Under the pieces are notes generated by a model. The model was not told the DNA's origin and searched no databases. It saw nothing but the letters and a program-made list of their open reading frames with translations. 64,000 bases of DNA, from IMG/VR virus record IMGVR_UViG_3300027566_000003; one strand, 5' to 3'. Position numbers and translations under genes: made by a program. Shown here piece after piece: positions 20,428-63,679 of the stretch. How positions within the stretch are numbered: position 1 is the first letter of the stretch; each line of letters begins with the position of its first letter. The DNA is from a virus (Duplodnaviria; Caudoviricetes).

Positions 20428-20594
20428 GTTAAAATTTAATATTTTGCTATAGATAATATCTCTAACTATTAAATTATAGTTAGAGATATTTTTGTGTAAC
20501 AAAATAAGTTGCACTAGGATAGGTTGCTTTAAATTAAAGCACTGATAAGTATTACCCATACTTCCACTATAAAAATGGGTAAAGGAGGTTTGCA

Positions 20595-21368
20595 ATGTCA
20601 AATCAATTAGTAAAATTTAAGGAACTGGAATTAATGGAAGTGGATTTTAATAGCAATCTAATCATAGTCGTAAAAATGAAAGACACTGGTAAAAGTTATG
20701 TGGGCGTAAATTGGATTTGTAATGGGATAGGGTTATCAGAAGGACAATTAAAAAATGAGCGTAAGAAAATTCAAGAAGATATTGTCCTTTCTAAAGGGGG
20801 ACGTAATTTAATCCTCCCTACAAAAGGTGGTAATCAGCAGTCTTTATGTCTTGAGTTAGATTTTTTACCTTTATGGTTAGCGAAAATATCTATTACTAAA
20901 GATATGCAACAAAATAAACCTGAAGTTATGGATAAACTTATTGATTATCAATTAAATGCGAAAGATGTATTATCTAAAGCATTTTTTGGAAAACAAGAAA
21001 AATGGGATTTGCAAAGAGAAGTTGGTAAAGTTGATAGAAAAAGAATGACTTCTAGTATCCAAACTTACATACCTAGTGCTAAACCTTTTACTTATGCTTC
21101 TTATACAGACATGACCTATAAAATTTTGTTTAATATGACAGCAAAACAAATAAGAGAAAGTAGAAATATAAATAAAAAAGGTGATCTTACAAGAGATTAT
21201 TTAACAGAAGCAGAATTAAAATTAGTTGATGAAGCAGAAACAATAGTTACTGCTTTGACGGCATTAGGATTTAAGCAAGATTATATAAAGCATCAGTTAG
21301 AAGTTAAGTATGGAAATAAAATGTTAGATGGTAATAAATTTTGTAAATTAGATAATAAAATAAAATAA
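20595..21368 (+). CDS. phage antirepressor (P22 Ant N-terminal-like domain)
   Basis: YVGVNWICNGIGL...CLELDFLPLWLAKIS...LIDYQ; RBS GGAGGT. Confidence 0.8.
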   Translation: MSNQLVKFKELELMEVDFNSNLIIVVKMKDTGKSYVGVNWICNGIGLSEGQLKNERKKIQEDIVLSKGGRNLILPTKGGNQQSLCLELDFLPLWLAKISITKDMQQNKPEVMDKLIDYQLNAKDVLSKAFFGKQEKWDLQREVGKVDRKRMTSSIQTYIPSAKPFTYASYTDMTYKILFNMTAKQIRESRNINKKGDLTRDYLTEAELKLVDEAETIVTALTALGFKQDYIKHQLEVKYGNKMLDGNKFCKLDNKIK

Positions 21369-21390
21369 AATAAAATAACATCCCTAAATA

Positions 21391-21420
21391 ACAAGACGCT
21401 TGAGTAATCAGGCGTTTTGT
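21391..21420 (+). terminator. intrinsic terminator after the antirepressor
   Basis: AAGACGCTTGA-GTAA-TCAGGCGTTTT hairpin. Confidence 0.55.
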
Positions 21421-21638
21421 GTGCGTATGGAATGGTTGTTTTTGTTTGGATGTTTTGTGGATAAGTCGATATCTCAAGCAAAATGTTTGAGATATTTGTT
21501 ATTCACTGAAATATGTGGATCAAAGTTGAGAGGTAATTTGGGTTAGCTACCCATCTCTGTACGCCTCTCTTCTTTATATTTTTTTTATTTGGAAATTAGT
21601 ACAGAGAAAATAAAAGTACAGAAAGAAGGAATTTAGAG

Positions 21639-23426
21639 ATGTTGGTTAGCGAAGAAGTAGAAGTTACACTTCATCCATCAAATGTTAAACATTATGAAGA
21701 TTTAGGTTATGAAATACCAAGAGAAAAAAATTAAAAAGAAACTTGTGATTCGTAAGGGTACAAAAATAAAGGTAAAAATAGAAGATCTTTTACCTGGAAC
21801 TAATGTAAAGATTATGTATAGATGTGATTATTGTGGAAAAGAAAAGTCAGTATTATATTGTGATTATACAAGGAGATCTTCAAAAAAAGACTGTTGTATT
21901 GATTGTTTACCTTTATATAATTCTGAAATAAATAAATTAAAATGGGAAGAAAAATTTAAATCTGAAACGAAAACATGTAGTAAATGTAAAAGAGAATTTC
22001 CTAAAACGACTGAATATTTCTTTCGAAGCATAGATAGACCAGACAGTTTATCTTGTCAATGTAAAGAATGTGCTTGTGGAAAAGAAATATTCGGAATAGA
22101 AAAAGAAATTATCCCAGAGGGATTTAAAAAATGTTTAGATTGTAAAGAAGTTTTTGAAATAAATGAAACTAATTTTAATACTTATGTTAAATCTTCTGAC
22201 GGTTTTTATAATATTTGTATTAAATGTCAAATTAATAGAAGACATAAGGATTCTATAGATGGATATAAGAAGTGTAAAATTTGTAACAGAGAACTTGCTA
22301 TCAATAGAGATTTTTATGACGTAGATGATAGATGTTTAGATGGATATAGGGGTATTTGTCGTGAATGCAACGGCGAAGACTTTTATCCAGAATTTAAAGC
22401 AGATCCTTGGAGTCAAGAAGATATTGATATTATAATTGAAAATTATGAACATAAAACAATTAAAGATATATTACCTTTACTTACTTCCATAAGAACTGAA
22501 AAATCAGTAATGCACTTAGCACAAAATTAGATTTAAGAAAAATAGATAATCATATAAAATACTATAAGCAAATTCAGTATAAAATTATTGATAATAAATT
22601 ACATAAATTATGTAAGTGTTGTGAGGAATACTTACCAGTAGATAGAGCATATTTTCCTGATGACCAAAAATGTACAGATAATTTAAGAAATGTATGCCGA
22701 GTTTGTAAAGGAGAGGAATATTTATTTGATTCAAATATTCATATTTGGACACAAGAAGAAACTACTATATTAATAAATAATTATTCTAGTATGACAAACA
22801 ATGAAATAAGAAATAAATACTTTCCGTTTCTAATAAATAGGCAAATAATGTGCAAAGGAAATAATTTAAATCTTTATAAAGCACAAGAAACGTTAGGTAG
22901 AATGTTTATTGAATTAGGTAAAATTACGTCAGATAGATTATTATCTTTAGATAAATGGAAAGGCGAAGATAATCCTCAATATGATAGTCAAAGATTTGGC
23001 AATCTAAATCCTAATTATAAAAATGGAATTAGTGCTTTGTCACAAGAATTAAGAAGAAATATAAAACAGTGGAAATTTGATAGTATGGATAATGCTAATT
23101 ATAAATGTTTTATTTCAGGAAAGAATTTTGATGATATTCATCACTTATATAGTTTTGGAAGTATAGTTCAAGATACTTTAAATGAAACTGGAATACCATT
23201 ATATGAGAATATCTCTTCATATACACAAGAAGAATTACAACAATTAATTGATAAATGTTTGGAGATACATAATCGTTACCCGTTAGGGATATGCATGCAG
23301 AAAAAATATCATATCCAATTTCATGTTGAGTTTAGGTATGGAAACAATACTCCTGAACAATTTTATCAATTCCTTGAAAATTATTATGATGGAAAATATA
23401 AATATTTGGAAGAAGTAACTCAATAG
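21639..23426 (+). pseudogene. frameshifted multi-zinc-finger HNH-type free-standing endonuclease (track ORFs 21709..22530 and 22791..23426)
   Basis: Removing one A from the A7 run at 21724-21730 and adding one A to the A4 run at 22523-22526 gives one continuous ORF from ATG 21639; C-terminal IHHLYSF...HIQFH...YGNNTPEQF. Confidence 0.8.
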
Positions 23427-23520
23427 TTCTGTTGACTATAAATGTATTATCTTTTTTTAGATAGTACATTTTTGTGTGACCAGAAATAAACAATTTAAGA
23501 ATAAAAGGAAGTGAAACTTA

Positions 23521-24693
23521 GTGGCAAGACAAAAATCTGTGGCAACAAATTCGATTGTGCCACAAGTTAAAATTGAAAATAACACAATCACATGCCCTAT
23601 GTGTGGAGAACCAAAATCTTCTATTAAAAGTGCTTTAAACTTTTATAAAAGTTTATCACCTTTGTATACAGGTATAAATCTAGAACGTGTTGACCAACCA
23701 ATGATGGTATTTTGTAAAGAATGTGTATGGAATACTTATGATACATATTTCAATATTTTAAAAGATATTAAGAAATCAGTTCTTATTACTTGTATGAAGT
23801 TTGATATACCATTCAATGAAGGTGACTTTGATGGAGCAATGAAACAGTACGTAAATAAACCATCTGCTCATCCGTTTAAAATATATATGACAAAATTAAA
23901 TTCATTGGGAAATTTCAACAACGCTTTAACTGGTTTTGATCCAAAGTTCTTATTTGATAAAGAAACTGGAAAAGACCTTATTACTAATGCATTGGAACTT
24001 GAAGTAAAGGATTTAGATTATAATGTTCAATTAAATGAACAGGATTTACAAGTTAAAGAAGATGTAATTAGACTTATAGGATATGATCCATTTGCTGGAT
24101 ATTCAAATTTTGACCAAAAGTTTTTATTTAATGAACTAATCACTTATCTTGACGAAGATACATTGGATGATGCTTTTAAATTAAGTCAGGTTTTACAATT
24201 AGTTAATAATAATAATCAGATACGAAAAATAGATTTAGTAATTTCTACTCTTAGTAATGATGCTAAGACTTTAATTTCGAACCAAGGAGAAATAAAATCT
24301 TTATCTGCTACTAAAAGTCAAATAGTAGGTAGTACAGATAAGATTGCAAAAGAGAATTCTATTTCTGTAAAAAATCGTGGAGATAAATCAGCAGGAAAAT
24401 CTACTCTCTCTAGTCTTATGAAACAATATAGAGAACTTAATTTTGAAGATGCTGAACAAGATTATTATGATCAAAATAAAGCATATGGCATGAAAATGAC
24501 AGCAGATATTTCAAATAAAAGTTTACTTGAACAATTACAGTTGGATGAAAATGATTATACTGATATGTTAAATACTCAAAGAGGATTGATCCAAGAGTAT
24601 CAGTCTAGAATTGAAGATTTAGAAGAGGAAAATAGACAATTAAATGTATTGTTAGATAAAAATGAATCACCTTCTATTTTGGAAGGTGATTAA
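23521..24693 (+). CDS. zinc-finger/coiled-coil protein upstream of TerL (YonG-like, possible small terminase)
   Basis: CPMC...CKEC; stop is 2 nt from the terminase start; synteny. Confidence 0.6.
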   Translation: MARQKSVATNSIVPQVKIENNTITCPMCGEPKSSIKSALNFYKSLSPLYTGINLERVDQPMMVFCKECVWNTYDTYFNILKDIKKSVLITCMKFDIPFNEGDFDGAMKQYVNKPSAHPFKIYMTKLNSLGNFNNALTGFDPKFLFDKETGKDLITNALELEVKDLDYNVQLNEQDLQVKEDVIRLIGYDPFAGYSNFDQKFLFNELITYLDEDTLDDAFKLSQVLQLVNNNNQIRKIDLVISTLSNDAKTLISNQGEIKSLSATKSQIVGSTDKIAKENSISVKNRGDKSAGKSTLSSLMKQYRELNFEDAEQDYYDQNKAYGMKMTADISNKSLLEQLQLDENDYTDMLNTQRGLIQEYQSRIEDLEEENRQLNVLLDKNESPSILEGD

Positions 24694-24695
24694 TT

Positions 24696-38685: not shown

Positions 38686-38707
38686 TATTTTAGATTTAAC
38701 AAACTAA

Positions 38708-38817
38708 AAAATGGTTTCTTATAAATTTGCGCAAATTTATAAGTGTAATTAAGAAGACTATATTATCCGAGATATAGTCTTCTTTCCCATTCTCTGATTC
38801 GGGAAGGAGAAAATAAT
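38708..38817 (+). promoter_or_regulatory. conserved double-hairpin/pseudoknot leader, copy 1
   Basis: ATGGTT - palindrome 38719-38742 - GTGTAA - 13-bp hairpin 38751-38784 (loop TATCCGAG) - TTCGGG - RBS AAGGAG. Confidence 0.7.
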
Positions 38818-39828
38818 ATGTTAGAAACTAAAGAGTTAAATATAAAACTTTCATCAAAAAATATTAATTATTATGAACAATTGGGATATAACATTCCAAA
38901 ATATAAAGACACTAGTGGTAAACAAAGAGTCAAAAAAGGAACTGAAATAAAAATTAAGATAGAACATTTACCATTACAATCACATAATAAAGTAGATGTT
39001 AAATGTGATTATTGTGAAAAAGTATTTCCAAAACCTTATTATTCTTACATTAATAGCAAAAATACATATGTAGTTAATAAAGATGCTTGTAATGATTGTA
39101 AATATATTAAGATAAAAGAATGTAATTTAATTAATTATGGATATGAAAATACTTCACAAATACCTGAATATAGAGAACATCTTAGATTATTAAAACGAAA
39201 TGATTTTGAGAAGGTAAAACGAGATTTTGAGAATATGAATTTTACACTTTTGACAACAGAAGATGAATATATTAATTCAAGACAATCTATGAAATGTATA
39301 TGCAATAATCATCCAAATATTATTCAAGAAAAAGAGCATTTCCATACCACAAAAGACGTAGGTTGTAAATATTGTCGGGCAGAAAATATTTCTGGAGAAG
39401 GAAATTGGAATTATCAAGGTGGAATTACTCCACTTCACAACTATCTTAGACAACATATATTGCAATGGAAAAAAGATTCAATATTATTTTATAATGGAAA
39501 GTGTGTTTTGACTAATAATACAACGACTATAGTACATCATTTATATTCATTTAATTTAATATTGCAAGAATTAATTCAAGAATTAAAATTAGATATGGAT
39601 TTTACTAAAATTAAAGTGGAAGATTTACCGGATGATCAATTAAAGTTATTAAAAGACAGATGTTTAGAATTACATTATAAATACGGGTTAGGTGTCTGTT
39701 TGTCCGATAATGTCCACAAACTTTTTCACTCACTTTATTCTTATGGCAATAACATTCCAGAACAATTCACAGAATTCCAACAACGTTATAACAATGGAGA
39801 ATTCACATCTCTCCTATTAGCAAAATGA
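38818..39828 (+). CDS. free-standing HNH-type endonuclease with N-terminal zinc domain
   Basis: YYEQLGY..KGTEIKIKIEHL..KCDYC; C-terminal IVHHLYSF...HKLFHSLY.YGNNIPEQF. Confidence 0.8.
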   Translation: MLETKELNIKLSSKNINYYEQLGYNIPKYKDTSGKQRVKKGTEIKIKIEHLPLQSHNKVDVKCDYCEKVFPKPYYSYINSKNTYVVNKDACNDCKYIKIKECNLINYGYENTSQIPEYREHLRLLKRNDFEKVKRDFENMNFTLLTTEDEYINSRQSMKCICNNHPNIIQEKEHFHTTKDVGCKYCRAENISGEGNWNYQGGITPLHNYLRQHILQWKKDSILFYNGKCVLTNNTTTIVHHLYSFNLILQELIQELKLDMDFTKIKVEDLPDDQLKLLKDRCLELHYKYGLGVCLSDNVHKLFHSLYSYGNNIPEQFTEFQQRYNNGEFTSLLLAK

Positions 39829-40440: not shown

Positions 40441-43400
40441 ATGGTAGATTTAATTGCTCGTGGTTTATCAAAAACAAATGCTATAAAATATGGCACCATA
40501 GGCATAGACACAGTTCAATCTATACCAGACACAAGTATCATTAGATTCAACTTAGTCAATGGAATGTTTTTTGATTGGGATTTATCATCTACAGACACAA
40601 TGTTTAGATCAACTTATGATACAAATAATAATGGTATAGTTGACAAATCAGAAAAACTAAAAAATAGTACAGATTCTACATTTAATGATGGAAATTATTA
40701 TTTAGATCGTACTAATCATACAGGATTCGATACAGCAAATAAAATAACAGTTAATAAAACTAATCTTATTGAAAATCTTGCAACGTTTACAGGCACTACA
40801 TTACAAGATTTAATAGATTTTATAGATTCTCTTGATACATTTAAAAATGGTGAATTAAATCTTGGAACAAAAAATGCAGTGAATTCATGGAAAATTATAA
40901 AAGAAGATGATGATTTATCATTTTATAGATATGATGAATATAATTCTCAATATAATTTAATTACTAGTTTTGGAGCATCCGTAAAATCCGATAAATTCAT
41001 ATTGACGGAATGGCAAGGGAGTATCCAAGGTTTAAAAGGAGATGGAACTTCAAGAACTTTATTGAAAACATCAGTTGATGATAATGGAGTTTTAATTGGA
41101 AATTATTATGGTCGTGCTGGTTTAATTAGTAATGGATTATATTTTTCTATGTATCCAACTGGCGTTGATTCTACATTTGTTTTAAATTCATGTACTGATT
41201 CTGAAGGAACTTCTAATGCTCAATCAATAACAAAGTTCACAACAAGATATCAGCCATTAGTACATGGTTTTTATACTGGAATTAGTGGACTTGATTTAAT
41301 ATCTGTTCCAAGTGGTACAACTGTTCGTGTATGGGTTGAGTCAGATGACCAAGACGACATAATGTTTGAAACTATAAATTATATAAATTTTAAAAAGGGA
41401 TTAGGCTTATCAGTATCTATTGGTGTAAATAACATTGTTTTTTATGAACCATTCCCAATTGATAAAGATACTCCCTTTTATTTAAATATAGAATTTAGCA
41501 ATGCCGTAACAATTAAAGGGTCTATTACTAACAATAATCAAGTTGGAGATCCGAAATTTTATCCTATGGGCAGTATTATCAGAGAAACTGCTGCATTTGA
41601 AAAATTAGCGACTCAAGATTGGGTTACTGAGAATACAAAGAAAACTGACAGTATGACAACAGATAGTAGTATATTATATGCTTCTGCAAAATCAGTATCT
41701 TCATTATCTAAGGTTGTATCTGCTATTTCTGGTGGTGCATCTCCATTGGTTCCGATTTCTTGTGAAGACTTTTCATTGCTACAAACTGGCACAAATGGAC
41801 AGCATTATATTTTTACCAATGATGGGATAATAAATACTCAAATAATAAGTAAACGTGATCATTGCTATGTAGTTGAAACTTTTGATTATACGGAAATTTT
41901 ACCGACTCAATATATACAAGAAGAAGATTATGTTGTAATTTCAAATGAAGTTGTTTCAAATGGTGCAATTTTTATTACAAATATTACACCTAACACTTTA
42001 GGTAAAAATGTAAGTAAAACTATGAACGATTATCCTAATGAAGCAACAATAAATAGTATTGCATCCGATGATGATACATGGACAGTTACAGTAATTTGGG
42101 ATAGAGGGTCAGAAGAATATTGTGGTCAACCTAAAGTTAATGGTATTGATGTAATAAATATTACAAATGTTGGTGGAGGAACTTTTACCGGAACAGTGAT
42201 AGTTACAACTAGCGAAATTACTGATAATGCAATAACCGCAACTTTTGGAACAGCAAGTTATAGAGTAGGTGTAGTTGTAGAAACTCCTCCAATAATTACA
42301 ACATTAACACTAAATAATACTCCAACTGATTATCCCATATCTTCATGGTCTGTTCAACAAACAGAGGTTAAAGTTGGAGACATTATGACATTTGATATCA
42401 TATCGGATAAAGATATTGTTGCTGTGGAGGTAGCATCTTATGGTGCAGGATCATCTAAAATTATAAATGTAACACAAGGTGCGACATTTACTGATTTAAC
42501 ATTTACGGTAGCATCTACTGGTTTAGTATCATCTAGTAAAACAATTAAAGTACGTGTGAAAAGTCCTACTGGGTCTTGGTCTGATTATGTAGAAAGTTCA
42601 AATAGTATTATATGCAATGACTTAACTCCTACAATTAGTGTGAATACAATAACATATCCATCAACTCAAACTGCATTAAAAAATAGCGAAACTGCAAGTG
42701 TTACATTTAATACTTCAAATCAAACAAGTGTAATTGTGACTGCTATTGGTTCAGATATTTCAATAAGTGGAGTTAATTCTACTACTGGTGCTTTTACAGC
42801 AACTAGAATTGGTGGAAGTTATGTTGATAATATTGATAATTTTACTGGTGTTGCTAGAAAAGATAGTAACGGTTCAAGTGTAAGTGTAAATGGATGTATT
42901 TTTATTGCAAATATCGCTCCTGTATTGTCTTCACAAAGTTTATTAACTTATAATGTAATGTCGGGCGTTGGCACTGTTACAAATACCCTTACTTTTAGTC
43001 AAAAGGTAAAAATTAAAAGTATTTCAGCATTAACTGCCGGAACACTGGTAACTGGAACAACTTCGACTTATACAACAACATATGGATTAGGTATATCGGC
43101 ACAATCCTCAGATACACATTCTAATACAGCAAATACAACAAATTTAGTAGTTACAGGACTTAGTGGAATTGATTCTGTAAGTATTCCAATCAACTATTAT
43201 ATTAGAGGATTTGCTAATATTGTTTTGAATTTTACTTACTCTGAATTATCAAAAGTAATTGGAACTATGGTTACAGATGTTACTAAGTGTGTAGTATCAG
43301 GAAAAATATTAAGTACGCCAATATTCGAAATTGCTAAAGAATATATTACTTATTCCAGTGTGGTTTTAGCTACTGCTGATAAATGGAGTATAAGTGCAGA

Positions 43401-43491: not shown

Positions 43492-43498
43492 TTTGTAA

Positions 43499-43607
43499 TA
43501 AAAATGGTTGTCTAATAAGGTTGCAAATTTATTAGACGTAAAACAAGAGTCATGCTGTCACATGACTCTTTTCCATGTAAAACTTTTTGACAGAAAAGGA
43601 GAAATAA
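43499..43607 (+). promoter_or_regulatory. conserved double-hairpin/pseudoknot leader, copy 2
   Basis: ATGGTT - CTAATAAG-GTTGCAAA-TTTATTAG - CGTAAAAC - AAGAGTCATG/CATGACTCTT with loop CTGTCA complementary to TGACAG at 43588-43593. Confidence 0.75.
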
Positions 43608-45080
43608 ATGAAAAAAGATTTATATAAACATATAGATTTAACTAATATACCAAAAAATAAAAGCAGATATAATTGGTTAAATTCTATCGGTAAAGAATGT
43701 AAATTTATATATGATGATATTTCTGGTTATGTTACAATAGTTGATTATAATTATAAGAAGCATAAATTGTATATTAAATATCTCGATAATGAGATTTTTG
43801 AAATTAATACTGATAATTTTTCTGATTGTGCTTTTGGTAAATTGTTAGGAAAAATAACTAGTGAATTTAAAATTAAATTAGGCAAAACTATAAAAAACAA
43901 AAAACAAGATTTTATTATTATAGACAGGGAAAAACATATAAGTGCGAATAATAAGTGTTTTGATAAGATATATAAATATCATTGTAATAAATGTGGACAT
44001 GAAGATTGGTTAATAGAACATAATTTATTAAAAGGAATTGGATGCTCCTGTTGCGGTATAACTCCTAAAAAAGTTATTGAAGGAATTAATGATATCCCAA
44101 CAACTGCCCTTTGGATGGTTAAGTATTTTCAAGGTGGATACGATGAAGCAAAACTATATACAAAATCAAGCAGTAAAACAATTTTCCCGATTTGTCCTGA
44201 TTGCGGAAGAATAAAGAATAGACCTATGTCTATTAATTCAATTTATACAAATAAAACAATAAGGTGTACTTGTAAAGACGGTAGGAGTTATCCAGAAAAA
44301 ATAATGTTTAATATATTGGAACAATTACATATTGATTTTTTAAGTGAATATTCTCCAGATTGGATTAAACCATTAAGATATGATTTTTATTTTGAATTAG
44401 GTAATAAAAAATATATTGTCGAAATGGATGGTGGTATTGGTCACGGAAATAAAGTAGTATATAATAATTCAATATATACCGTAGAATATGCACTAAACAT
44501 TGATAATTATAAAGATAACCTAGCAAATATTAATAATATAGATATTATTAGAATTGACTGTAAAATTTCTGATATAGATTATATAAAAACTAATATATTT
44601 AATACAAAATTGTTAAATATATTAGAACTTTCAAGCATTGATTGGATAAAATGTGATGAATTTGCTTTAAGTAATTTAGTAAAAAAAGCTTGTGAAATAA
44701 AAAAAGAAAACGAAAATTTATCAACATCTGATATCGGTTTATTATTACATTTAAATCGTAGTACAATATGTAAATATTTAAAAGAAGGAAGTAAATTTGG
44801 TTGGTGTAATTATAATCCAAATAATGAGAGAATGAAATCGTTAGGTCATAAAGTAAATATTAGGAAAGTTGAGGTATTTAAGAATGATACATCTTTAGGA
44901 ATTTTTGAAAGCACAAATGATATAGAAAGAAAAAGTGAAGCTTGCTTTGGAGTAAAATTATTACAGTCTTGTATATCTCTAGTTTGTAATGGTAAACAAA
45001 AATCACACAAAGGATTTATTTTCAAGTATATAAATAACGAAAACCAAGAAGTGGTTAATAATTTATCCACTTCTTTTTAA
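43608..45080 (+). CDS. free-standing Vsr/DUF559-like endonuclease with zinc fingers and NUMOD1-like HTH
   Basis: RYDFYF...IVEMDGGIGH; CNKC, CSCC, CPDC; C-terminal FESTNDIER...ISLVCNGKQKSHKGFIF. Confidence 0.75.
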   Translation: MKKDLYKHIDLTNIPKNKSRYNWLNSIGKECKFIYDDISGYVTIVDYNYKKHKLYIKYLDNEIFEINTDNFSDCAFGKLLGKITSEFKIKLGKTIKNKKQDFIIIDREKHISANNKCFDKIYKYHCNKCGHEDWLIEHNLLKGIGCSCCGITPKKVIEGINDIPTTALWMVKYFQGGYDEAKLYTKSSSKTIFPICPDCGRIKNRPMSINSIYTNKTIRCTCKDGRSYPEKIMFNILEQLHIDFLSEYSPDWIKPLRYDFYFELGNKKYIVEMDGGIGHGNKVVYNNSIYTVEYALNIDNYKDNLANINNIDIIRIDCKISDIDYIKTNIFNTKLLNILELSSIDWIKCDEFALSNLVKKACEIKKENENLSTSDIGLLLHLNRSTICKYLKEGSKFGWCNYNPNNERMKSLGHKVNIRKVEVFKNDTSLGIFESTNDIERKSEACFGVKLLQSCISLVCNGKQKSHKGFIFKYINNENQEVVNNLSTSF

Positions 45081-47661: not shown

Positions 47662-47682
47662 TAATTAACAAAATAATAAATT

Positions 47683-47794
47683 AAATATGGTTACTTAATA
47701 AGAGTCGACGCTTATTAAGTGTAAAACGAGAGACTATGCCGTTACATAGTCTCTTTTCCATTATATTTAATCTCAATGACGGAAGGAGAATAAA
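47683..47794 (+). promoter_or_regulatory. conserved double-hairpin/pseudoknot leader, copy 3
   Basis: ATGGTT - CTTAATAAG-AGTCGACG-CTTATTAAG - TGTAAAAC - GAGAGACTATG/CATAGTCTCTT with loop CCGTTA complementary to TGACGG at 47777-47782. Confidence 0.75.
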
Positions 47795-48715
47795 ATGGGG
47801 AGAAAACTAACTAATGAGTTTATTAAAATAGGTGTCGAAAAATTAGGTTATAAATTAGCAAGTACATATGTTGGTCAATTAACAAAAATAACCATATATG
47901 ATGAATTAGGATATTATTATGTTGTTGGAGCAAAATCATTATTAAAAAATCATATTCCAGATAAATTTCATTTATTCAATCCTTACACAATACAAAATAT
48001 AAAATTATGGGCAAAATTAAATAATAAACCTTTTGAATTATTGAGTGATACATATGAAGGAAGTGACAAATATCTTCGATGGAAATGTTTAAAGGAAGAT
48101 TGCAGAGAAGAATTTGATGCAACTTGGAATAATATTATTAATAATAAAGGTTGCCCCTACTGTTCTGGGCATAAAGTAGGATTATCTAACTGTCTAGCAA
48201 CTAAAAATCCAGAACTTATAAAAGAATGGAATTTAATTAGAAATGGTAGTTTAACTCCTTTTGACGTAACTTGGTGTAGCGGAAAAGAAGTTTGGTGGAA
48301 ATGTAAGAAATGTAATCATGAGTGGAAAGCGAGAATAAGTAATAGAACTAGCACTAATAAAACAGGTTGCCCAGAGTGTAAAGAACCAAAAGGTGAAAAA
48401 GAATGTAAACGAGTTTTTGACTTAAAAAATGTTTATTATATACCTCAAAAAGAGTTTGATGGTTTAATTGGATTAAGAGGTGGTTTATTATCTTATGATT
48501 TTTATTTACCTAAATACAATTTATTGATTGAGTATCAAGGAGAATATCATGAATTTCAACAAAGCCATGTAAGTGAAAATAAATTTAAAACTCAACAAGA
48601 ACACGACAGAAGAAAAAGAGAATATGCAAAAGACAATAATATTAAACTTCTAGAAATATGGTACTGGGATATAGATAAGATTGAAAAAATTCTTGAAAAA
48701 GAATTGTTTATATAA
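47795..48715 (+). CDS. free-standing zinc-ribbon + Vsr/DUF559-like endonuclease
   Basis: NCLATKNPELIKEWN...WWKCKKCNHEW...GCPEC; SYDFYLPKYNLLIEYQGEYH. Confidence 0.8.
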   Translation: MGRKLTNEFIKIGVEKLGYKLASTYVGQLTKITIYDELGYYYVVGAKSLLKNHIPDKFHLFNPYTIQNIKLWAKLNNKPFELLSDTYEGSDKYLRWKCLKEDCREEFDATWNNIINNKGCPYCSGHKVGLSNCLATKNPELIKEWNLIRNGSLTPFDVTWCSGKEVWWKCKKCNHEWKARISNRTSTNKTGCPECKEPKGEKECKRVFDLKNVYYIPQKEFDGLIGLRGGLLSYDFYLPKYNLLIEYQGEYHEFQQSHVSENKFKTQQEHDRRKREYAKDNNIKLLEIWYWDIDKIEKILEKELFI

Positions 48716-51480: not shown

Positions 51481-51596
51481 AAACAGACTAGGGAGAGCTA
51501 CCCGAAAGACACAACGCCTTAGTGTTTGTCTGTTTATTATCTTTTTGAGAAGAAATTTTAAGGTTAATAAAACAATATGAAAGGCGGTTGTTGGAG
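51481..51596 (+). promoter_or_regulatory. three-way-junction leader with anti-RBS loop
   Basis: AAACAGAC/GTCTGTTT outer stem; inner loop CGCCTT complementary to AAGGCG at 51581-51586. Confidence 0.6.
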
Positions 51597-53164
51597 ATGT
51601 TAGAAACAAAAGAAGTAGAAGTAGTTTGGTCTAATTGGGGAAAAGAATATTATATTCTAAAAGGTTATTGTTTTACTAGAATAGGCGACGCATTTATAGT
51701 TAAAATTGAAGATGTGCATCCTAATTCAAATATAACCATCGAATATGAATGTGATTATTGTAAAACACCCCAAAAAATATACTTTAGAGATTATAACAAA
51801 CAAAAAAGAGATATTATAAATAGAGATTGTTGCAGTAAATGTGCTCATTTTAAAGTTGCTGAAATAAAGAAAAAGAAAGCAGAGTTAGGAATATTAAATA
51901 AAACGATTCTGGTTATTGGAAGTTTTATCCCAATAGATTAAAAGAATTACATATATTTTTAAAAAATAATAAATTTGAAGATATCTTTAATATTGGTTAT
52001 TCACAATTAAAAGAATCTTTTTATCAAAATAAAGATAATGTAATTGATATGATATTTGAATTAAAATTAAATATTTTTGAAGTATGCAATAATTTACATA
52101 AGTTATATTTCTACATTAATGAAAATAACATACAAAATATTATAAATATTTTTATTGAAAGGCATAAATACTTTCCTTCCCTATTAGAAATGTCAAATAA
52201 TTTACAAATTTCTTATTCAATTTTAGCTAAATGTGGTGGTTATTATTATATAAAGAATAGTATGGGATATTATGATAATGACATTGGTAGTAAATTATTA
52301 GATACAAAAAATAGTATGGAGAATTTTGAAAAATATAAAAATGTTAGTGGTATTTATAAGATAACTAATATTAAAAATGCAAAAGTGTATATTGGGCAAG
52401 CAATAGATTTGTGGCATAGAATTAGTTCTGGATATATTTATACATTGCCTAAAGGAAAATGTCACAATGTTCACCTTCAAAGAGCGTGGGATAAAGACGG
52501 AGGAGAAAGTTTTTATATAGAAGTTATTGAAGTTTGTGATGTTGAATTTTTAACGAAAAGAGAACAATTTTGGATTGATCAAACTCAATGTTTTAACAAC
52601 AAATTTGGTTATAATGTTTTGGAATTTGCCGAAAGTAATAGAGGTGCTAAAATATCTGAAGAAACAAGGAAAAAGATGAGTGATGCTTCTAAATTAAAAT
52701 TCGGGTGGAATCATACACAAGAAACAAAAACTATTTTATCAGAAAAACATTCTAAATCTATTATTCAATTAAATTTAGATGGTATTTATATTAAAGAGTG
52801 GAAAAACTCCAATGATGCGTCAATTACATTAACTGGTAAAAATACAAGTGCTAATAATATAAGAGATTGTGCAAATGGGCGAGGTGCTTCAGCTTGTGGT
52901 TACATATGGATATATAAAGATAAGTATAATGAATTAACTTTTGACAAAATGGATTATGAAAATAGAGATACAACTAAACGAAGGGTTATTCAATTAAGTT
53001 TAAGTAATGAATATATAAAAACATTTAGGACAATAACTGAGGCAAAAAATACAACAAAAGCAAGTAATATAAGTGCATGTTTAAATGGTTTACAACATAA
53101 AAGTGGTGGATTCAAATGGATGTATGAAGAAGATTATTTAAATAAAATAAAGGAAGTGAATTAA
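51588..53164 (+). pseudogene. frameshifted GIY-YIG endonuclease with NUMOD3/NUMOD1-like repeats (track ORFs 51588..51941 and 52049..53164)
   Basis: One A added to the A4 run at 51900-51903 joins both ORFs with no stops; SGIYKITN..VYIGQA, HTQETKTILS, FRTITEA...ISACL. Confidence 0.8.
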
Positions 53165-54384: not shown

Positions 54385-54482
54385 ACTAGCAGGAGTAATG
54401 GCTTAATTACCCATTATCAAAGGGTACTCTCCCCTATCCTGCTAGTCAATATCTTTTAGTGAGAGTAAAATAAGAAAGAGAG
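54385..54482 (+). promoter_or_regulatory. three-way-junction leader with anti-RBS loop
   Basis: ACTAGCAGGA/TCCTGCTAGT outer stem; inner loop TACTCTC complementary to GAGAGTA at 54461-54467. Confidence 0.65.
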
Positions 54483-58264: not shown

Positions 58265-58362
58265 ATTGTTGGTGGTAGGATTATTTGTTTATTATTATTC
58301 CTTCTCCTGATTTGATTCTGTTGTAGATACATATGTTTGAAGTTTTGATGAGCATATGAGGG

Positions 58363-58686: not shown

Positions 58687-58693
58687 TTGGATA

Positions 58694-58722
58694 TTGACAA
58701 TATCCATGTACTCCTGTATACT
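58694..58722 (+). promoter_or_regulatory. sigma-A promoter
   Basis: TTGACA-17 nt-TATACT. Confidence 0.75.
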
Positions 58723-58776
58723 ATTATTAAGTTAAGGTAAACAAATCAATCATCCTTAACAAATTAGTATAGAGGA

Positions 58777-59424: not shown

Positions 59425-59453
59425 TGGGTAGATTGTGATTATTCTGGCTTGAT

Positions 59454-61146
59454 ATTATGGGGAGTTTATTCTCCCCTCAAATTAAATGAAAGGTGGTGAA
59501 TATATGTCAAACTTTGTTTTAACTCTACCATTAAAAACCGAAACATATCAAGAAGATATTTTAAGTAAGCGTTTTGAAATTGGGAGAAAAATGTATAATG
59601 CTTGTTTAAATGAATTATATAAGCGTTACAATACATTAAGACAATCAAAAGAGTACCAAAAAGTTTGTAAAATGACAAAAGGTAAAGAACGGAATAAGCA
59701 GTTTCAAGCATTAAACAACAAATACGGTTTGACAGAATATTCACTACATGATTTTGTTAAACCTATGCAACATAAATACAAGAAAAACATTGATGCATTT
59801 ACTTCGCAAAAAGTAGCTACAAGATGTTTCTCGGCATTTCAAGGCTTAATGTTTCATACAGCTAAAAAAGTTGGTTATAAATCTTATAATGATTTAGATT
59901 CTTTAGAAGGAAAATCAAATGGTACTGGAATAAGATTTATAGACAATGTGCTATTGTGGAATGGATTAAAAATATCTGTAGTAATTAAAAAGAATGATAC
60001 TTATGCTAAAATGTCTTTAGAAAATAAAATAAAGTATTGTCGTATTGTACGTAAAATGATAAAAGGGAAAAATCATTATTATATTCAGTTGATTTTAGAT
60101 GGTATTCCTCCAATGAAGATAACTAAACAAGGTGAAATTAAAGGGAGTATAGGCAAGGGTAATGTAGGAATTGATATTGGAACGCAAACAATTGCTTATA
60201 GTAGTCAATATCAAGTCAAACTTCTAGAACTAGCACCAAACATCAATAAAATTGATAGAGAAGTTAAATTACTCCAGCGTAAAATGGACAGATCGAGAAG
60301 AGCAACAAATCTTAATAAATTCAATGATAATGGTACTATAATTAAAGGCAATAAAGATAAATGGGTTTATAGTAACCATTACATTAAAATTAAGAACGCT
60401 AGAAAAGAATTATTTAGGAAACAATCTGCACTTAGAAAGCAGTCTCACAATATTTTAGCAAATGAGATCATTAATTTAGGCGATAAATTCTATGTTGAAA
60501 ATATGAGTTATTCTGGATTGCAGAAAAGAAGTAAAAAAACTACTAATAAGAAAAATGGAAAGTTTAATAAGAAGAAGAGATTTGGTAAATCATTAGCGAA
60601 TAAAGCACCTTCAATGTTCTTAACAATCTTGGACAATAAACTTAAATGGAATGACACCCAATTGTATAAAATTGATACAGTAAAAATTAAAGCAAGTCAA
60701 TATAATCATATTGATGATGTTTATGTCAAAAAGGACTTGTCAGAAAGATGGAATGATTTTAGTGAATTTAAGATTCAAAGGGATTTATATTCAGCATTTC
60801 TGATAATGAGTGTGAATAATGATATGGAAACAATTAATAGAGATTCGTGTTTTGAGAAGTTTAATGAGTTTAAAGTGTTGCACGATATTGAGGTTGAAAG
60901 ATTAAGAAGTTTGGATTTAAGTAAAGCATTAAGAAATGTAATCTAACAATTAAATAACGGTTTAGAAACGAGCCGTATGCTATCGTTAATTTGACCAATG
61001 GGTTGATTGATAGTGAAATTCTTATGGAAAATGATTAGTGTTTATATGTTGTAAAATACAGATGAAATGTAATGCCTGTAAATGAGAGTATTAAAGAAAA
61101 TTATTTAGTACATAAGAACCCCATGCCTTTAGGCGTGGGAGTTTCA
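59454..61146 (+). mobile_element. non-autonomous IS200/IS605-family (IS1341-type) TnpB-only element
   Basis: TTGAT at 59449-59453; left hairpin GGGGAG/CTCCCC 59459-59476; right hairpin CCCATGCCT/AGGCGTGGG 61120-61139 followed by GAGTTTCA; no tnpA. Confidence 0.75.
59486..60946 (+). CDS. tnpB: TnpB RNA-guided endonuclease
   Basis: RuvC-I VGIDIG, RuvC-II YVENM, RuvC-III QRDLYSA; likely start ATG 59504. Confidence 0.9.
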   Translation: MKGGEYMSNFVLTLPLKTETYQEDILSKRFEIGRKMYNACLNELYKRYNTLRQSKEYQKVCKMTKGKERNKQFQALNNKYGLTEYSLHDFVKPMQHKYKKNIDAFTSQKVATRCFSAFQGLMFHTAKKVGYKSYNDLDSLEGKSNGTGIRFIDNVLLWNGLKISVVIKKNDTYAKMSLENKIKYCRIVRKMIKGKNHYYIQLILDGIPPMKITKQGEIKGSIGKGNVGIDIGTQTIAYSSQYQVKLLELAPNINKIDREVKLLQRKMDRSRRATNLNKFNDNGTIIKGNKDKWVYSNHYIKIKNARKELFRKQSALRKQSHNILANEIINLGDKFYVENMSYSGLQKRSKKTTNKKNGKFNKKKRFGKSLANKAPSMFLTILDNKLKWNDTQLYKIDTVKIKASQYNHIDDVYVKKDLSERWNDFSEFKIQRDLYSAFLIMSVNNDMETINRDSCFEKFNEFKVLHDIEVERLRSLDLSKALRNVI

Positions 61147-61166
61147 GATCTAGAGGCCAAGATTAT
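60947..61166 (+). ncRNA. predicted omegaRNA (right-end scaffold plus flanking guide)
   Basis: ~200-nt non-coding tract between the tnpB stop and the right-end hairpin; inferred from known TnpB biology. Confidence 0.55.
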
Positions 61167-61289
61167 ATATTTAAACGGTTAGAAAAACTCAAAAAGAAAG
61201 ACTTGCAATTACAGCAAGCCAATTAAGAATTCATGCAAATTAAGTATATCACAGATTCATAAAGTAATCTATAAAAGGAGGAAATTTAT

Positions 61290-61418
61290 ATGGACGATAA
61301 AGAAAATTTTTTATCTGAAATTAAAATGATGATTGAGTTGGATGAGATGTTAAGATTTAATCAGATATTCTTTAACAGTGTTAAAGAACAAATATTAATA
61401 TCAAATTTAATGTCGTGA
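61290..61418 (+). CDS. 42-aa peptide upstream of vapD (candidate antitoxin; not in the ORF track)
   Basis: RBS AAGGAGG; MDDKENFLSEIKMMIELDEMLRFNQIFFNSVKEQILISNLMS. Confidence 0.45.
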   Translation: MDDKENFLSEIKMMIELDEMLRFNQIFFNSVKEQILISNLMS

Positions 61419-61434
61419 GTATTTTGATTTTAAA

Positions 61435-61800
61435 TTGGAAATACTGTTGATATATGGAAAGGAAGGTGATATGATGTTTAAAAAGATTAAGGGAGGAAAA
61501 TCAATGTATGCTATTGCTTTTGATTTAGATACACAAATTTTAAGTGAAAACTATGATAAACAACATTATAACAACGCATACAACGAGATTAAGCTTTATT
61601 TGTCAAGTAAAGGTTTTGACCGACAGCAAGGTAGTGTTTATTTTGGTAATGAATCAATTGATGCCGTAAAAACTGTTTTAGTTGTTCAAGGTTTGGCAAG
61701 GAAATATCCATGGTTCGCTCCATCTGTAAAAGATATTCAGATGTTGAGAATTGAAGAGAATGGTGATTTGTTACCAGCTATTTTAGGAGCTAATGATTAG
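61435..61800 (+). CDS. vapD: VapD (Cas2-like) endoribonuclease
   Basis: MYAIAFDLDT...NAYNEIK...GFDRQQGSVY...WFAPSVKDIQMLRIEE; likely start 61504 or 61471, both with an RBS. Confidence 0.9.
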   Translation: MEILLIYGKEGDMMFKKIKGGKSMYAIAFDLDTQILSENYDKQHYNNAYNEIKLYLSSKGFDRQQGSVYFGNESIDAVKTVLVVQGLARKYPWFAPSVKDIQMLRIEENGDLLPAILGAND

Positions 61801-61834
61801 ATTAGAGGTTAATAATTTAATAGTTTGTTTTTAA

Positions 61835-61862
61835 AAGAACCTAGATTTCTAGGTTCTTTTAT
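61835..61862 (+). terminator. terminator after vapD
   Basis: AAAGAACCTAG-ATTT-CTAGGTTCTTT. Confidence 0.7.
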
Positions 61863-62046
61863 TATGCCCAAATTTAATATTGATAGTTTTAGCAGACCTT
61901 TGGACGCTCTGGTTTGCTATTAAATAAGCAACAATCTGCAATTGCAATGCAGTAGAAGGGAATACACTCCTCCCTTCTTTTTTTTGTTGCCTTTTTATAT
62001 GGAATTGTTTGGAGTGTGGGTTTAGTAATGAGTAAGAATATAAAAT

Positions 62047-63679
62047 TTGAAGGAGTGCTGGAATTATATGAGAATTAAATGGTCAAAAGAAGAAACGAAT
62101 TTTTTAAAAGATAATTACATGGTCATGACAGATGAAGAATTGGCGGGAAAACTAGGAAAAACAACGATACAAATAAAAGATAAGAGAAATCATGAGCATT
62201 TAGTAAGGATAACAATTTTTTCCAAAGAATTTTTAATATCTGAATTTTGGCGTTTCTTTAATGAAAATGAAAGATATCCTTTAAAAAAAGAATTAAAACC
62301 AGCAATTGGTTATCCATCAGGAGTTAATTATGAACGTAAATGGGGAAGTTGGAATAGTTTTTTAAAAGAAATTGATGTATTAGGTGACAGTGGGTGGTAT
62401 AAATGTGATGAACAAGTTTTGATTGATTATTATACTAATAGTTCCATCGAAGAGATTAATGATAGATTAATGATTAAACGTAATAAAGAAATAATAATGA
62501 AAAAGGCAAACAATTTAGGATTATACATAAAAAAAAGAAGTAGTGAAGAATATCAATTAATTATCCAAGATTATTTAAATGGAACAAATTGTCAAGAAAT
62601 AGCTAAGAAATATGGATATAGTGATGGAGCTTCAATATATTATGTTCTTAAAAAATACAACATTGAATTAAATAGAAATGATATATGGTCTGAAGAACAA
62701 ATAGAAAATCTTAAAATATATTACCCCTACAACAGAATGGGAGGAATTGTTAGAATTATTAAAACCATTTGATAAAGATGGAATTATACATAAGGCATCA
62801 GATTTGAATATAAAAAGATTGCTAAATTCAGAATGGTCAGAAGAAGATATTAATATTTTGAAAGAATATTACGGAGAAAAATCTACAAAACAATTAGCAA
62901 TATTATTGCCATATCGTACAGAATCATCAATAGTTACAAAAGGATATAAATTAGGATTAGAGTCAAGAATAAGATGGTCTGATGAAGATATAGAAATATT
63001 TATCAAAGAATACCCAATTAAAACAAATAAAGAGTTAGCAAACATATTTAATAGGACACCTACTGCAATCATGGGAGAGGCGTTAAAATTAGGATTAAAG
63101 AAAGATATTGAAGAACATTTATATATTATATATGATGAAGAAAAATTAATACGTGAATTAAAGGAGTATGCTCAAATTTTAGGAAGAACACCTCTTTCAT
63201 ACGAAGTAAATGAAAATAAAAATATGGCACATTCCAATACATATAGACGTTGTTTTGATGGTTATGTTGATGCTTGTCAAAAGGCAGGTTTAGAACCAAA
63301 TTATGAAGGAAATATATTTTCTCCAAGGACATATAGATCAAAAAATAATGATTTGTGTCTTTCGCAGCCAGAATTAATTATTACTAATTTATTTATAGAT
63401 AATGTTTTAGAGTACGAGAAAGAAGTATATTATTCGTCTTTTTCAGACGATCCTAGGTGTGGTTATAAGAGATGTGATTGGTTTTTAGTAGATGGTATAA
63501 TTGTAGAATATTTTGGTATGGAAAGGAGAGAATCTTATCAAAAAAGAATGTTAGAAAAACAAGCTATATGTTCAGATAATAATTTAATATTAATAGAACT
63601 TTATCCAAAGGATATGAGAAAAGGGCTAGAAGGTTTAATAAATAAATTTAAAGAGTATGGTATTGAATTAAGTCAATAA
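62047..63679 (+). pseudogene. frameshifted repeat-rich free-standing endonuclease (track ORFs 62047..62772 and 62747..63679)
   Basis: Removing one C from the C4 run at 62724-62727 joins the ORFs; W(S)xE(E/D) repeats, homing-endonuclease-associated repeats (FSKEFLISEF, YDEEKLIRELKE..GRTP), C-terminal CDWFLVDGIIVEYFG. Confidence 0.75.

Follow-up and report, generated by a model that had tools for sequence, protein, structure and literature searches.

The window analysed here, a 64,000-nt stretch of phage DNA, carries three homing endonuclease-like genes, each behind a structured leader (copies A to C of what we call the HEG leader) with two hairpins, H1 and H2. Next to the SD of each gene lies a short segment complementary to the H2 loop. 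The leaders and their genes are laid out as follows.

38709-38820, plus strand: HEG leader copy A (model R1 82.5 bits; RNAfold z -3.8), with AUGG 38711-38714, H1 38718-38743 (a perfect 26-nt palindrome), H2 38751-38784 (loop 38764-38771), CCAU 38787-38790, pyrimidine tract 38791-38795, complement UUCGGG 38798-38803, SD AAGGAG 38804-38809 and ATG 38818
38818-39828, plus strand: homing endonuclease-like gene after copy A, 336 aa (phrog_12131 homing endonuclease, phrog_5104)
43502-43610, plus strand: HEG leader copy B (model R1 86.4 bits; z -3.9; perfect 6-bp loop/target match), with H1 43510-43537, H2 43545-43570 (loop CUGUCA 43555-43560), CCAU 43573-43576, complement UGACAG 43588-43593, SD 43596-43601 and ATG 43608
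43608-45080, plus strand: homing endonuclease-like gene after copy B, 490 aa (phrog_4538, phrog_9084 homing endonuclease)
47685-47797, plus strand: HEG leader copy C (model R1 87.7 bits; z -4.2; 6 bp, one U-G), with H1 47693-47720, H2 47728-47755 (loop CCGUUA 47739-47744), CCAU 47758-47761, complement UGACGG 47777-47782, SD 47783-47788 and ATG 47795
47795-48715, plus strand: HNH/DUF4379 homing endonuclease-like gene after copy C, 306 aa (PF14311 3.4e-27, phrog_559 5e-53)

The original prediction had united these leaders (sites 3-5) with five others (sites 1, 2 and 6-8) in one family whose hairpin loops pair with the RBS region of the gene behind them. All eight string pairs exist, exact in sequence and position. 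We enumerated hairpins (stem of at least 6, loop of 3-16) within 130 nt before each of the 144 genes called in the full 122,175-bp genome, scored a match where the loop was complementary, with G-U allowed, to the -26..-1 region of its own gene, and took the expected values from the same loops set against the RBS regions of other genes. Matches of at least 6 nt occurred in 24 of 124 leaders against 23.5 expected (P = 0.51), and matches of at least 5 nt in 59 against 53.6, a chance rate at which a 6-9-nt loop/RBS match does not serve as a diagnostic sign. The statement that no such pairing precedes core structural genes fails under the same definition, because the large terminase (24696, with a 10-nt match) and the portal gene (26607) are among the high scorers. 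Strong hairpins (stem of at least 8, loop of at most 9) did show an excess, with 6/30 matching at 6 nt or more against 1.4 expected; three of these six are the leaders at 38.7k, 43.5k and 47.7k, and two have A/U-only loops (TTTTATT, TTTATT).

The leaders at 38709-38820, 43502-43610 and 47685-47797 are paralogous copies of an uncatalogued cis-acting leader RNA; the family is absent from Rfam 15, where a search gave no match at E ≤ 5. Relatives were collected by a neighbouring-protein search and pattern scans, and the roughly 40 members lie on related contigs from a clade of uncultured, low-GC phages of 120-350 kb. Model R1, built from the leader without its pseudoknot, recovers 35 unique members. 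The leader starts 5-25 nt past the upstream stop codon. From 5' to 3', an A/U-rich stretch and the invariant AUAUGGUU lead into H1, a long hairpin, which the junction GUAAWW connects to H2. After H2 come YCCAU, a short run of pyrimidines (the pyrimidine tract), the 6-7-nt complement of the H2 loop (the target), a strong SD (AAGGAG, GAGGAG or AAAGG, 0-3 nt after the target) and the ATG. The base of H2 is conserved (AAAGAGA/UCUCUUU) and its top is variable. Compared with shuffles, the three window paralogues reach RNAfold z values of -3.8 to -4.2.

Covariation supports the fold. In alignment A4 (28 sequences), double changes were present at 11/11 pairs of H1, 10/12 of H2 and 6/7 of the loop/target helix, and 91.6% of the cells were paired, compared with 74.8% in shuffles (0/500) and 39-51% when the 3' partner was slid. 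Loop/target pairing was at least 5 in 31/34 scored members and at least 6 in 26/34, against 24.5% and 10.6% when the loops of other members were used. About 20 different loop/target pairs occur in the family, and members found by the model alone or in other phages add further compensated pairs (CUACUA/UAGUAG, CCUAUA/UAUAGG, CCUAAC/GUUAGG, CCAGUA/UACUGG, UUCCUUA/UAAGGAA). In one member (L113) the complementarity is lost, and in two (L008, L129) the downstream part of the leader is missing. We show that, across the aligned members, H1, H2 and the H2-loop/pre-SD pairing are kept by compensatory changes. By this evidence the pairings of sites 3-5 (38766/38798, 43555/43588, 47739/47777) are real and conserved, while model R1 does not find the other five leaders.

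Of the genes behind the leader, 25/25 tested are HEG-like, and the 25 proteins fall into four BLAST clusters (a phrog_12131/5104/559/9084 network, phrog_4538, GIY-YIG and EndoVII/HNH), each with HEG-annotated members. This shows that the HEG leader goes together with nucleases from four or more unrelated families. Contig L001 encodes, in syntenic position, a 487-aa protein with 43% identity to the 490-aa nuclease at 43608; model R1 finds no HEG leader in front of it, so the leader is not indispensable.

We infer that, in this groundwater-metagenome phage, the HEG leader controls translation of the nuclease, probably by repressing it. Our preferred reading (probability about 0.6) is of an uncatalogued leader whose covarying loop/pre-SD pairing would govern translation initiation of the nuclease, preferably by repression. 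By pairing with the SD, the pyrimidine tract would form a weak hairpin (H3) with the target exposed in its loop; the H2 loop would then contact this target, loop to loop or as an H-type pseudoknot, and so lock H3. The selfish nuclease would thus be held at a low or conditional level, comparable to I-TevI, mobE and segB, whose translation is limited by RBS-sequestering structures (PMC3014915). In the minimum-energy fold of nearly all tails, the pyrimidine tract and SD form a 4-7-bp hairpin with the target in its loop. Predicted SD accessibility is also lower in the family than in genes of the genome (median unpaired 0.28 vs 0.55, P = 3e-7), a comparison of related sequences with an artificial A-rich tail. 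In nested-only folds, the SD accessibility of the three window copies is unremarkable (ranks 17, 40 and 84 of 138). H3 is weak (-2 to -6 kcal/mol) and has no support from covariation: the paired share of cells is 82%, with 80% in shuffles and 68-80% after sliding. Its potential to pair comes from the purine-rich make-up of the SD opposite a tract of pyrimidines. With the shortest linkers (~6 nt from CCAU to H3), H2, H3 and the loop-loop helix may be sterically incompatible.

The conserved pairing adjoins the SD rather than covering it, an arrangement shared with the IncI/IncB activator pseudoknot that counts against repression. In those plasmids, according to PMC8053102 (citing Asano and Mizobuchi 1998), RepZ cannot be translated without the pseudoknot beside the repZ RBS. 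By analogy, the loop/pre-SD pairing could activate translation, with the pseudoknot drawing the pyrimidine tract along the H2 groove, off the SD, and presenting the SD to the 30S subunit. The target ends short of an SD that is itself left free, and the weakness of H3 and its lack of covariation point the same way, yet we consider activation rather unlikely. There is no conserved leader peptide (the AUAUGGUU AUG opens frames of 3-13 codons, varying in length and lacking an SD), no antisense partner is known, strong and well-spaced SDs need no activator unless occluded, and the documented logic for selfish nucleases is restraint (PMC3014915). It is quite improbable that the leader serves mainly as a module for RNA processing, stability or insulation, with control of nuclease translation secondary. 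H1 and H2 would then end or protect the upstream structural-gene transcript (as a weak terminator, 3' stabiliser or RNase site), and the tertiary pairing would create a compact nuclease-resistant fold. The start of the leader so close to the upstream stop codon, the terminator-like A tract before H2 and UUUU(C)CCAUUU after it, and the location of the cassettes among late structural genes (tail sheath at 40441) would fit such a module. However, a terminator scan makes no call, the U tract being too short; a pure terminator requires neither H1 nor a covarying partner further downstream, and the target is fixed beside the SD in about 40 members.

That the conserved features act as DNA, as a nuclease recognition or landing site or a cruciform whose complementarity is a DNA inverted repeat, is hardly credible, even though the near-perfect palindrome of H1 continues across its centre (TGCA, TCGA, GCGC, GGCC), which an RNA hairpin does not require. 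One loop/target type does occur with different nuclease families, and one junction with different nucleases in relatives, but stem sequences vary freely while pairing is kept, an ill fit for a sequence-specific DNA site. Furthermore, H1, H2 and the loop/target helix contain many G-U pairs (UUCUGAU/GUCAGAG, CCGUUA/UGACGG), which the opposite strand or a cruciform would turn into A-C mismatches; because of the G-U pairs, we read the HEG leader as sense-strand RNA.

Translational repression by the HEG leader would share with the T4-type hairpins (I-TevI, I-TevII/III, mobE of Aeh1, segB) a cis structure at the initiation region that restrains a selfish nuclease (PMC3014915). Those structures are single, gene-specific hairpins holding the SD or AUG and are relieved via a late promoter inside the structure, whereas the HEG leader is a 110-nt multi-helix module common to unrelated nucleases, with its conserved pairing beside the SD and no evident internal promoter. 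The IncI1/IncB repZ (repA) leader likewise pairs the loop of an upstream stem-loop with sequence beside the SD (PMC8053102; Asano and Mizobuchi 1998). Its activating pseudoknot depends on leader-peptide translation and is antagonised by an antisense RNA that binds this loop. The HEG leader shows no leader peptide and no antisense RNA. In kissing complexes such as ColE1 RNA I/RNA II and TAR/TAR*, a 6-7-nt hairpin loop is fully paired to a complementary loop in trans. In the HEG leader the partners lie on one mRNA, about 25-35 nt apart, and the display of the target in a loop is putative.

A known RNA with a similar layout lies within the same window, at site 6.

51481-51586, plus strand: int-alpA RNA (Rfam RF02996; RNA 51481-51550; 39.5 bits, gathering score 35.8, E 7.8e-5) and downstream complements, with P1 51481-51488/51528-51535, P2 51491-51503, P3 51509-51525 (loop AACGCCUUA), UAAGG 51559-51563 and AAGGCG 51581-51586, the SD region of ATG 51597

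The hairpin of site 6 corresponds to P3 of a genuine int-alpA RNA, the sole match of the Rfam model. Because this model matches only 51481-51550 and model R1 finds three copies in the whole genome, the eight leaders do not form one family. We know of no function for int-alpA RNA. The motif is referenced to Weinberg et al. 2017 (PMC5737381), where the main text does not discuss it. The P3 loop of int-alpA can pair with either of two downstream targets on viral contigs, the second of them fused to the SD. At least one downstream complement occurs in 75/84 instances against 24 in permutations, and at least two in 48/84 against 5.8. The previously noted partner AAGGCG (51581) fits this SD-fused second site, TAAGG (51559) being the first. 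HNH/NUMOD nucleases, Rha/Bro/KilA proteins or integrases are frequently encoded behind it on these contigs. Both RNAs are 5' leaders of phage or prophage accessory genes, which bears out the predicted placement before accessory or selfish genes, and in both a three-way junction carries a third hairpin whose loop pairs with a sequence near the SD, beyond the closing stem. The HEG leader differs in lacking the defining UAGGG..CCCGAAAG core of int-alpA, in a closing stem of at most 4 invariant bp (AUGG/CCAU), in a first hairpin of 11-13 bp and in having one target instead of two. Loop-to-pre-SD pairing is under selection in two RNA families of the window, the HEG leader, present three times, and int-alpA, present once; it is unproven at sites 1 and 8.

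The remaining four leaders are as follows.

20553-20589, plus strand: hairpin before an antirepressor gene (site 1), with stem 20553-20559/20575-20581, a 15-nt loop with ACUUCC and SD GGAGGU 20584-20589
21528-21641, plus strand: int-alpA-like degenerate leader (site 2), a sequence reading assigned by resemblance only, with stem GAGAGG 21528-21533/CCUCUC 21564-21569 enclosing GGGUUAGCUACCC 21540-21552 and unpaired UCUCUGUAC 21554-21562, complements GUACAGAGA 21599-21607 and GUACAGA 21616-21622 beside SD GAAGGA, and ATG 21639
54385-54467, plus strand: three-way-junction leader before a DEAD-like helicase (site 7; RNAfold z -2.2), with outer stem 54386-54394/54437-54445, hairpin GUAAU..AUUAC, hairpin GGG-UACUCUC-CCC (loop 54425-54431) and complement GAGAGUA 54461-54467
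61954-62057, plus strand: terminator-like hairpin (site 8; hairpin 61954-61978, loop AUACACUCC, then U8), with loop complements GGAGUGU 62011-62017 and GGAGUG 62052-62057, the SD region of ATG 62068

For these sites the odds are about even that the complementarity arose by chance or as a by-product, since any SD is matched by a loop with much CUCC or CUUCC; the generic match rate equals expectation. The layouts of sites 2 and 7 suggest variants similar to int-alpA. At site 2, where ATG 21639 starts a frameshifted HEG, the 9-nt segment lies outside any hairpin loop, the second, partial complement GTACAGA (21616) abuts the SD, and neither Rfam nor the homologue search gave a match. The one homologue of site 7 (L138:3902-4021, 81% identical) keeps CUCUC/GAGAG and has lost the two outer pairs without compensation, which favours chance. 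The partner first proposed at site 8, GGAGTGT (62011), lies 57 nt before ATG 62068, the likely start codon, and hence not at the RBS; the second copy, GGAGTG (62052), is the real SD region, and the sole homologue (L343) is nearly identical. Loop and partner show no variation among relatives at site 8, nor do they at site 1, where loop and SD are identical in L344, L349, L350 and L352. Against chance, sites 2, 7 and 8 each resemble int-alpA in having a pair of downstream complements of which the second lies at the SD. Also against it, the stem of site 1 covaries in these four relatives (A-U to G-C, C-G to U-A) around a 15-nt loop that stays invariant.

Three intergenic regions of the window (38686-38817, 43492-43607 and 47662-47794) are paralogues with two strong hairpins each, H1 and H2, and lie directly upstream of homing-endonuclease-like genes (HEGs). 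Fold z-scores ranged from -3.8 to -4.2 in these HEG leaders and from -2.2 to +0.7 in the other five leaders of the original prediction. The first relatives were two IMG/VR loci (L002 and L003) beside a neighbouring structural protein, and further relatives came from pattern scans of viral and metagenome contigs for the conserved base of H2. A detector blind to downstream pairing returned 30 unique members, and a covariance model with no pseudoknot inside, R1, returned 35 in the retrieved loci and only the three copies on the whole of the phage's own genome. Other phage genomes with members measure 122-349 kb, and each genome holds one to three copies. The leader is organised as follows.

Architecture of the HEG leader, from 5' to 3'
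A/U-rich stretch beginning 5-25 nt past the upstream stop codon (5' start)
Invariant AUAUGGUU
H1, 9-13 bp
Junction GUAAWW
H2, with the base AAAGAGA/UCUCUUU conserved and the top variable
YCCAU, then a pyrimidine tract (CCUUU, CUCUU or CUUUU)
Target, 6-7 nt complementary to the H2 loop
AAGGAG, GAGGAG or AAAGG 0-3 nt past the target, then ATG (3' end)

No Rfam family matched the HEG leaders at E ≤ 5. Judged from sequence comparison, the HEG leader is a cis-acting phage HEG leader RNA with the layout of int-alpA (Rfam RF02996, described in Weinberg 2017; a three-way junction RNA with helices P1, P2 and P3), and it is new relative to Rfam. H1 (38718-38743, 43510-43537, 47693-47720 and homologues) is a near-perfect palindrome through its centre (TGCA, TCGA, GCGC, GGCC or GTCGAC), such that the DNA sequence has no unpaired loop, an unexplained feature that RNA hairpins do not require.

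The tertiary pairing is supported by covariation. In an alignment of 28 sequences, changes on both sides occurred in 11/11 pairs of H1, 10/12 pairs of H2 and 6/7 pairs between the H2 loop and its target, and 91.6% of cells were paired, compared with 74.8% in shuffles (the observed values were reached by 0/500) and 39-51% when the 3' partners were slid. The AUGG/CCAU helix, which would close a three-way junction, was paired in 97% of cells, with both strands invariant and zero pairs changing on both sides. Among the scored R1 members, the loop/target match was at least 5 in 31/34 and at least 6 in 26/34, whereas the same test with other members' loops gave 24.5% and 10.6%, respectively. R1-only members or other phage genomes added the compensated pairs CUACUA/UAGUAG, CCUAUA/UAUAGG, CCUAAC/GUUAGG, CCAGUA/UACUGG, CUGCUA/UGGCAG and UUCCUUA/UAAGGAA. 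The frequency of G-U pairs indicates that the structure belongs to the sense RNA. One member has broken pairing (L113:2692-2809, loop UAUCGG vs target UAUAGG), and two others have no SD or ORF part (L008:4453-4580 and L129:2621-2748); all three are probably decaying copies.

The window corresponds to positions 15180-79179, on the minus strand, of one virus record of 122,175 bp; the G+C content of the record is 28.8%, and nearly all genes lie on the + strand of the window. The sole sequencing run containing it is a groundwater metagenome, possibly its source, and no RNA runs containing the stretch are listed. Megablast found no near-identical phages in GenBank, and the nearest relatives of the nucleases are <35% identical. 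A host search by scanning genome contigs gave one true HEG-leader member, whose 3-kb contig had been placed in a Clostridiales MAG; this is too weak for naming a host.

Genes and RNA features of the window
14677-14751: tRNA-Thr (UGU), the sole gathering-level Rfam match in a first, faster-filter scan
24696: large terminase
26607: portal
40441: tail sheath
50874: RuvC
53169: integrase-like gene
59486: transposase
HEGs, scattered among the window genes:
21639/21709: HEG, frameshifted
38818, 43608 and 47795: HEGs behind the HEG leaders
51597: HEG fragment
52049: HEG, GIY-YIG
62068: HEG, HNH_repeat/HTH

As the nucleases sit between structural genes, we considered group I introns. Rfam gave no group I or II intron match around the nucleases, neither at gathering nor at E ≤ 5, and the flanking ORFs have a stop codon, or an SD and ATG, of their own where they end or begin, rather than being exons of one gene as expected for an intron. 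Neither AATGGTT, TACCCAT nor TTTYCCAT behaved as a general promoter motif, showing no excess by strand or intergenic position. Between 38200 and 49200, a sigma-70 scan, whose model may not be the phage's, found promoter-like sites at shuffle level, and a terminator scan did not call H2 on the + strand.

The 25 proteins of at least 100 residues encoded downstream of HEG leaders match nuclease/HEG PHROGs and Pfam families almost exclusively, including phrog_12131/5104, 559/9084/7140, 4538, GIY-YIG 314/7168/5123, EndoVII/HNH and DUF4379, and fall into four BLAST clusters with HEG-annotated members in every one. One loop/target type can accompany nucleases of several families, as with CCGUUA, which stands before five different N-termini. 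At the junction behind an 851-aa structural gene, the window carries a leader and a phrog_559-type nuclease (47685-47797), while L002:6912-7029 and L003:6540-6656 carry a leader and a phrog_4538-type nuclease, which suggests cassette replacement at one site. In L001, a homologue of the 43608 nuclease stands at the syntenic place without an HEG leader. The mixing of families, the differing junction nucleases and the leaderless homologue mark leader and ORF as modules that can be separated. The interval L001:5845-5960 was considered as an empty site and rejected, because the preceding 487-aa gene is that same nuclease homologue and the interval is not vacant.

Loop-to-RBS complementarity as such does not single out these leaders. 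The original prediction placed complementary strings in eight leaders (pairs starting at 20560, 21554, 38766, 43555, 47739, 51515, 54425 and 61964; sites 1-8), all of which are present in the sequence, and presented them as one family preceding accessory genes. For a generic test, 144 genes were called on the whole genome, hairpins (stem at least 6, loop 3-16) were collected from the 130 nt upstream of each, and the score was the longest run over which any loop could pair with the -26..-1 region of the same gene, with G-U at half weight. A score of at least 6 was reached in 24/124 leaders, compared with 23.5 when other genes' RBS regions were used (P = 0.51), and thresholds of 5, 5.5 and 7 likewise gave no significant excess. 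The prediction had counted a similar rate in shuffled or core-gene leaders as grounds against it; since the rate is at chance level, its generic statement is refuted, and the terminase and portal genes are among the top scorers, contrary to its observation of none before core structural genes. Strong hairpins only (stem at least 8, loop at most 9) did show an excess, 6/30 vs 1.4 expected; the HEG leaders (38.7k, 43.5k, 47.7k) account for three of the six, and A/U-only loops for two. The lesson for scans is that short loop/RBS matches in an A/T-rich genome are no evidence, and that comparative data alone sort real cases from background.

Comparison identified site 6 as an int-alpA RNA (51481-51550; 39.5 bits vs a gathering threshold of 35.8, E = 7.8 × 10−5), seen with permissive filters and missed by faster ones. 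Its junction between P1 and P3, UAGGG-hairpin-CCCGAAAG, is present at 51489-51508. Elsewhere in 20400-62200, which covers the HEG leaders and sites 1, 2, 7 and 8, permissive filters gave no int-alpA match at E ≤ 5; the HEG leaders differ in having junctions of their own, UU(N), GUAAWW and U(N), in place of the int-alpA junction. A core scan of IMG/VR yielded >118 int-alpA loci. Among the matches listed, 75/84 unique instances carry one or more downstream complements of the P3 loop, vs 24 in permutations, and 48/84 carry two or more, vs 5.8. Again among the matches listed (loci L159-L276), the positions of the complements have maxima at about 16-20 and 28-38 nt downstream, with the farther site fused to the SD, and the genes behind viral int-alpA frequently encode HNH/NUMOD nucleases, Rha/Bro/KilA proteins or integrases. 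At site 6, the predicted AAGGCG (51581) holds up as the SD-fused second site, to which a first site, UAAGG at 51559, has to be added. We found no description of the two-complement pattern in the literature searched. Behind the int-alpA RNA lies a 114-aa N-terminal HEG fragment (phrog_12131), and 107 nt past it a GIY-YIG/NUMOD nuclease that lacks an evident SD; the stretch 51597-53164 possibly represents a cassette that has decayed or is composite.

Pairing of a loop with the SD region is thus selected in two RNA families, the HEG leader and int-alpA, to which four of the eight leaders belong. The idea of a single family does not survive, as R1 finds three copies only and int-alpA matches at one place only, while the pseudoknot and its tie to selfish or accessory genes are upheld.

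How the pairing would act can be approached from predicted folds. The minimum-energy fold of nearly every tail contains a small hairpin, H3 (4-7 bp, -2 to -6 kcal/mol), in which the SD is predicted to pair with the pyrimidine tract and the target to be exposed in the loop, and predicted SD accessibility is lower in family members than in the genome's genes (median 0.28 vs 0.55, P = 3 × 10−7). H3 shows no covariation beyond what composition yields, so we treat the SD hairpin as a possibility and not as a finding. We infer a translational switch, for which a repressive lock is the favoured mechanism: the H2 loop would dock onto the loop of the SD hairpin, or make an H-type pseudoknot beside the SD. 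Repression is favoured because the SDs are strong and well spaced, because the leaders share a conserved anti-SD-like tract in a constant position, and because restraint through RBS structure is a documented logic for phage HEGs (PMC3014915). By analogy with IncI1/IncB repZ (PMC8053102), the loop/target pairing might instead activate translation, which fits the geometry in that the pairing lies beside the SD and not on it. However, the IncI1/IncB activator, whose loop is also contested by an antisense RNA, needs leader-peptide translation to open an inhibitory structure, and the HEG leaders have no conserved leader peptide; their sole upstream AUG, in AUAUGGUU, opens frames of 3-13 codons, inconsistent in length and without an SD. 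T4-type RBS-sequestering hairpins hold the SD or AUG inside the helix and have a late promoter within the structure that gives a shorter, translatable transcript. The candidate SD helix of the HEG leaders is the predicted one of 4-7 bp, which shows no covariation beyond composition.

Large phages abound in free-standing homing endonucleases, and to our knowledge restraint of their expression is known for a few T4-type genes only. The HEG leader provides a well-defined RNA module of ~110 nt common to unrelated nuclease families, and nature has supplied about 20 compensated versions of a single tertiary pairing beside the SD, a ready-made mutant series for examining how such pairings tune translation. 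The orphan Rfam motif int-alpA gains a concrete, testable mechanism, a loop with two alternative targets of which the second is fused to the SD, and is tied in phages to homing endonucleases and antirepressor-type genes. A bolder reading, which we consider improbable, is that both RNAs are branches of "selfish-gene leaders", that is, three-way junctions that dock their apical loop next to the SD or onto it, answering a shared signal of phage or host origin (a protein, ligand or infection stage) and undergoing fast, conflict-driven turnover of the compensated loop/target pair. Were this so, the conflict might involve nucleases cutting the leader DNA of rival cassettes or, alternatively, orthogonality might be needed between cassettes within one cell, and the leader would be at once regulator and battleground of cassette exchange.

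Outside the window, the phage's own genome (window-equivalent 75440-75505, L004) carries a hairpin, AGUUGCUG-CUGUU-CGGCAACU, then CCAU, with AACAG directly 5' of GGAGG and the ATG of a structural-looking 269-aa gene. As a fourth HEG-leader copy (window-equivalent 75451) it was rejected, there being no R1 match; it is a miniature look-alike.

At sites 1, 2, 7 and 8, loop/RBS pairing stays a candidate from complementarity. Leaders 1, 2 and 8 had no blastn match in any of the retrieved loci, and later protein-anchored retrieval gave close relatives only. The site 1 hairpin (20553-20581), before an antirepressor gene, differs from four relatives (L344, L349, L350 and L352) by two compensated stem pairs, and its 15-nt loop, ACUUCCACUAUAAAA, is identical in all four; selection seems to act on the loop sequence itself. 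At site 7, a three-way junction, the single homologue retains CUCUC/GAGAG alone. Site 8 is a terminator-like hairpin whose loop finds its complement in two places, 62011 and the true SD (62052); the gene start is likely 62068. At site 2, the outer stem GAGAGG/CCUCUC and the GGGUUAGCUACCC hairpin are kept, and the unpaired UCUCUGUAC has two complements, one at 21599 and another, adjacent to the SD, at 21616. The HEG behind this leader (21639-22530) is split: the frame from the ATG at 21639 is 30 codons long (MLVSEEVEVTLHPSNVKHYEDLGYEIPREKN*) and closes in an A-rich run (GAGAAAAAAATTAAAAAG, ~21716-21733), and the remainder lies in another frame from 21709, which could reflect a pseudogene, an assembly error or a slippage site.
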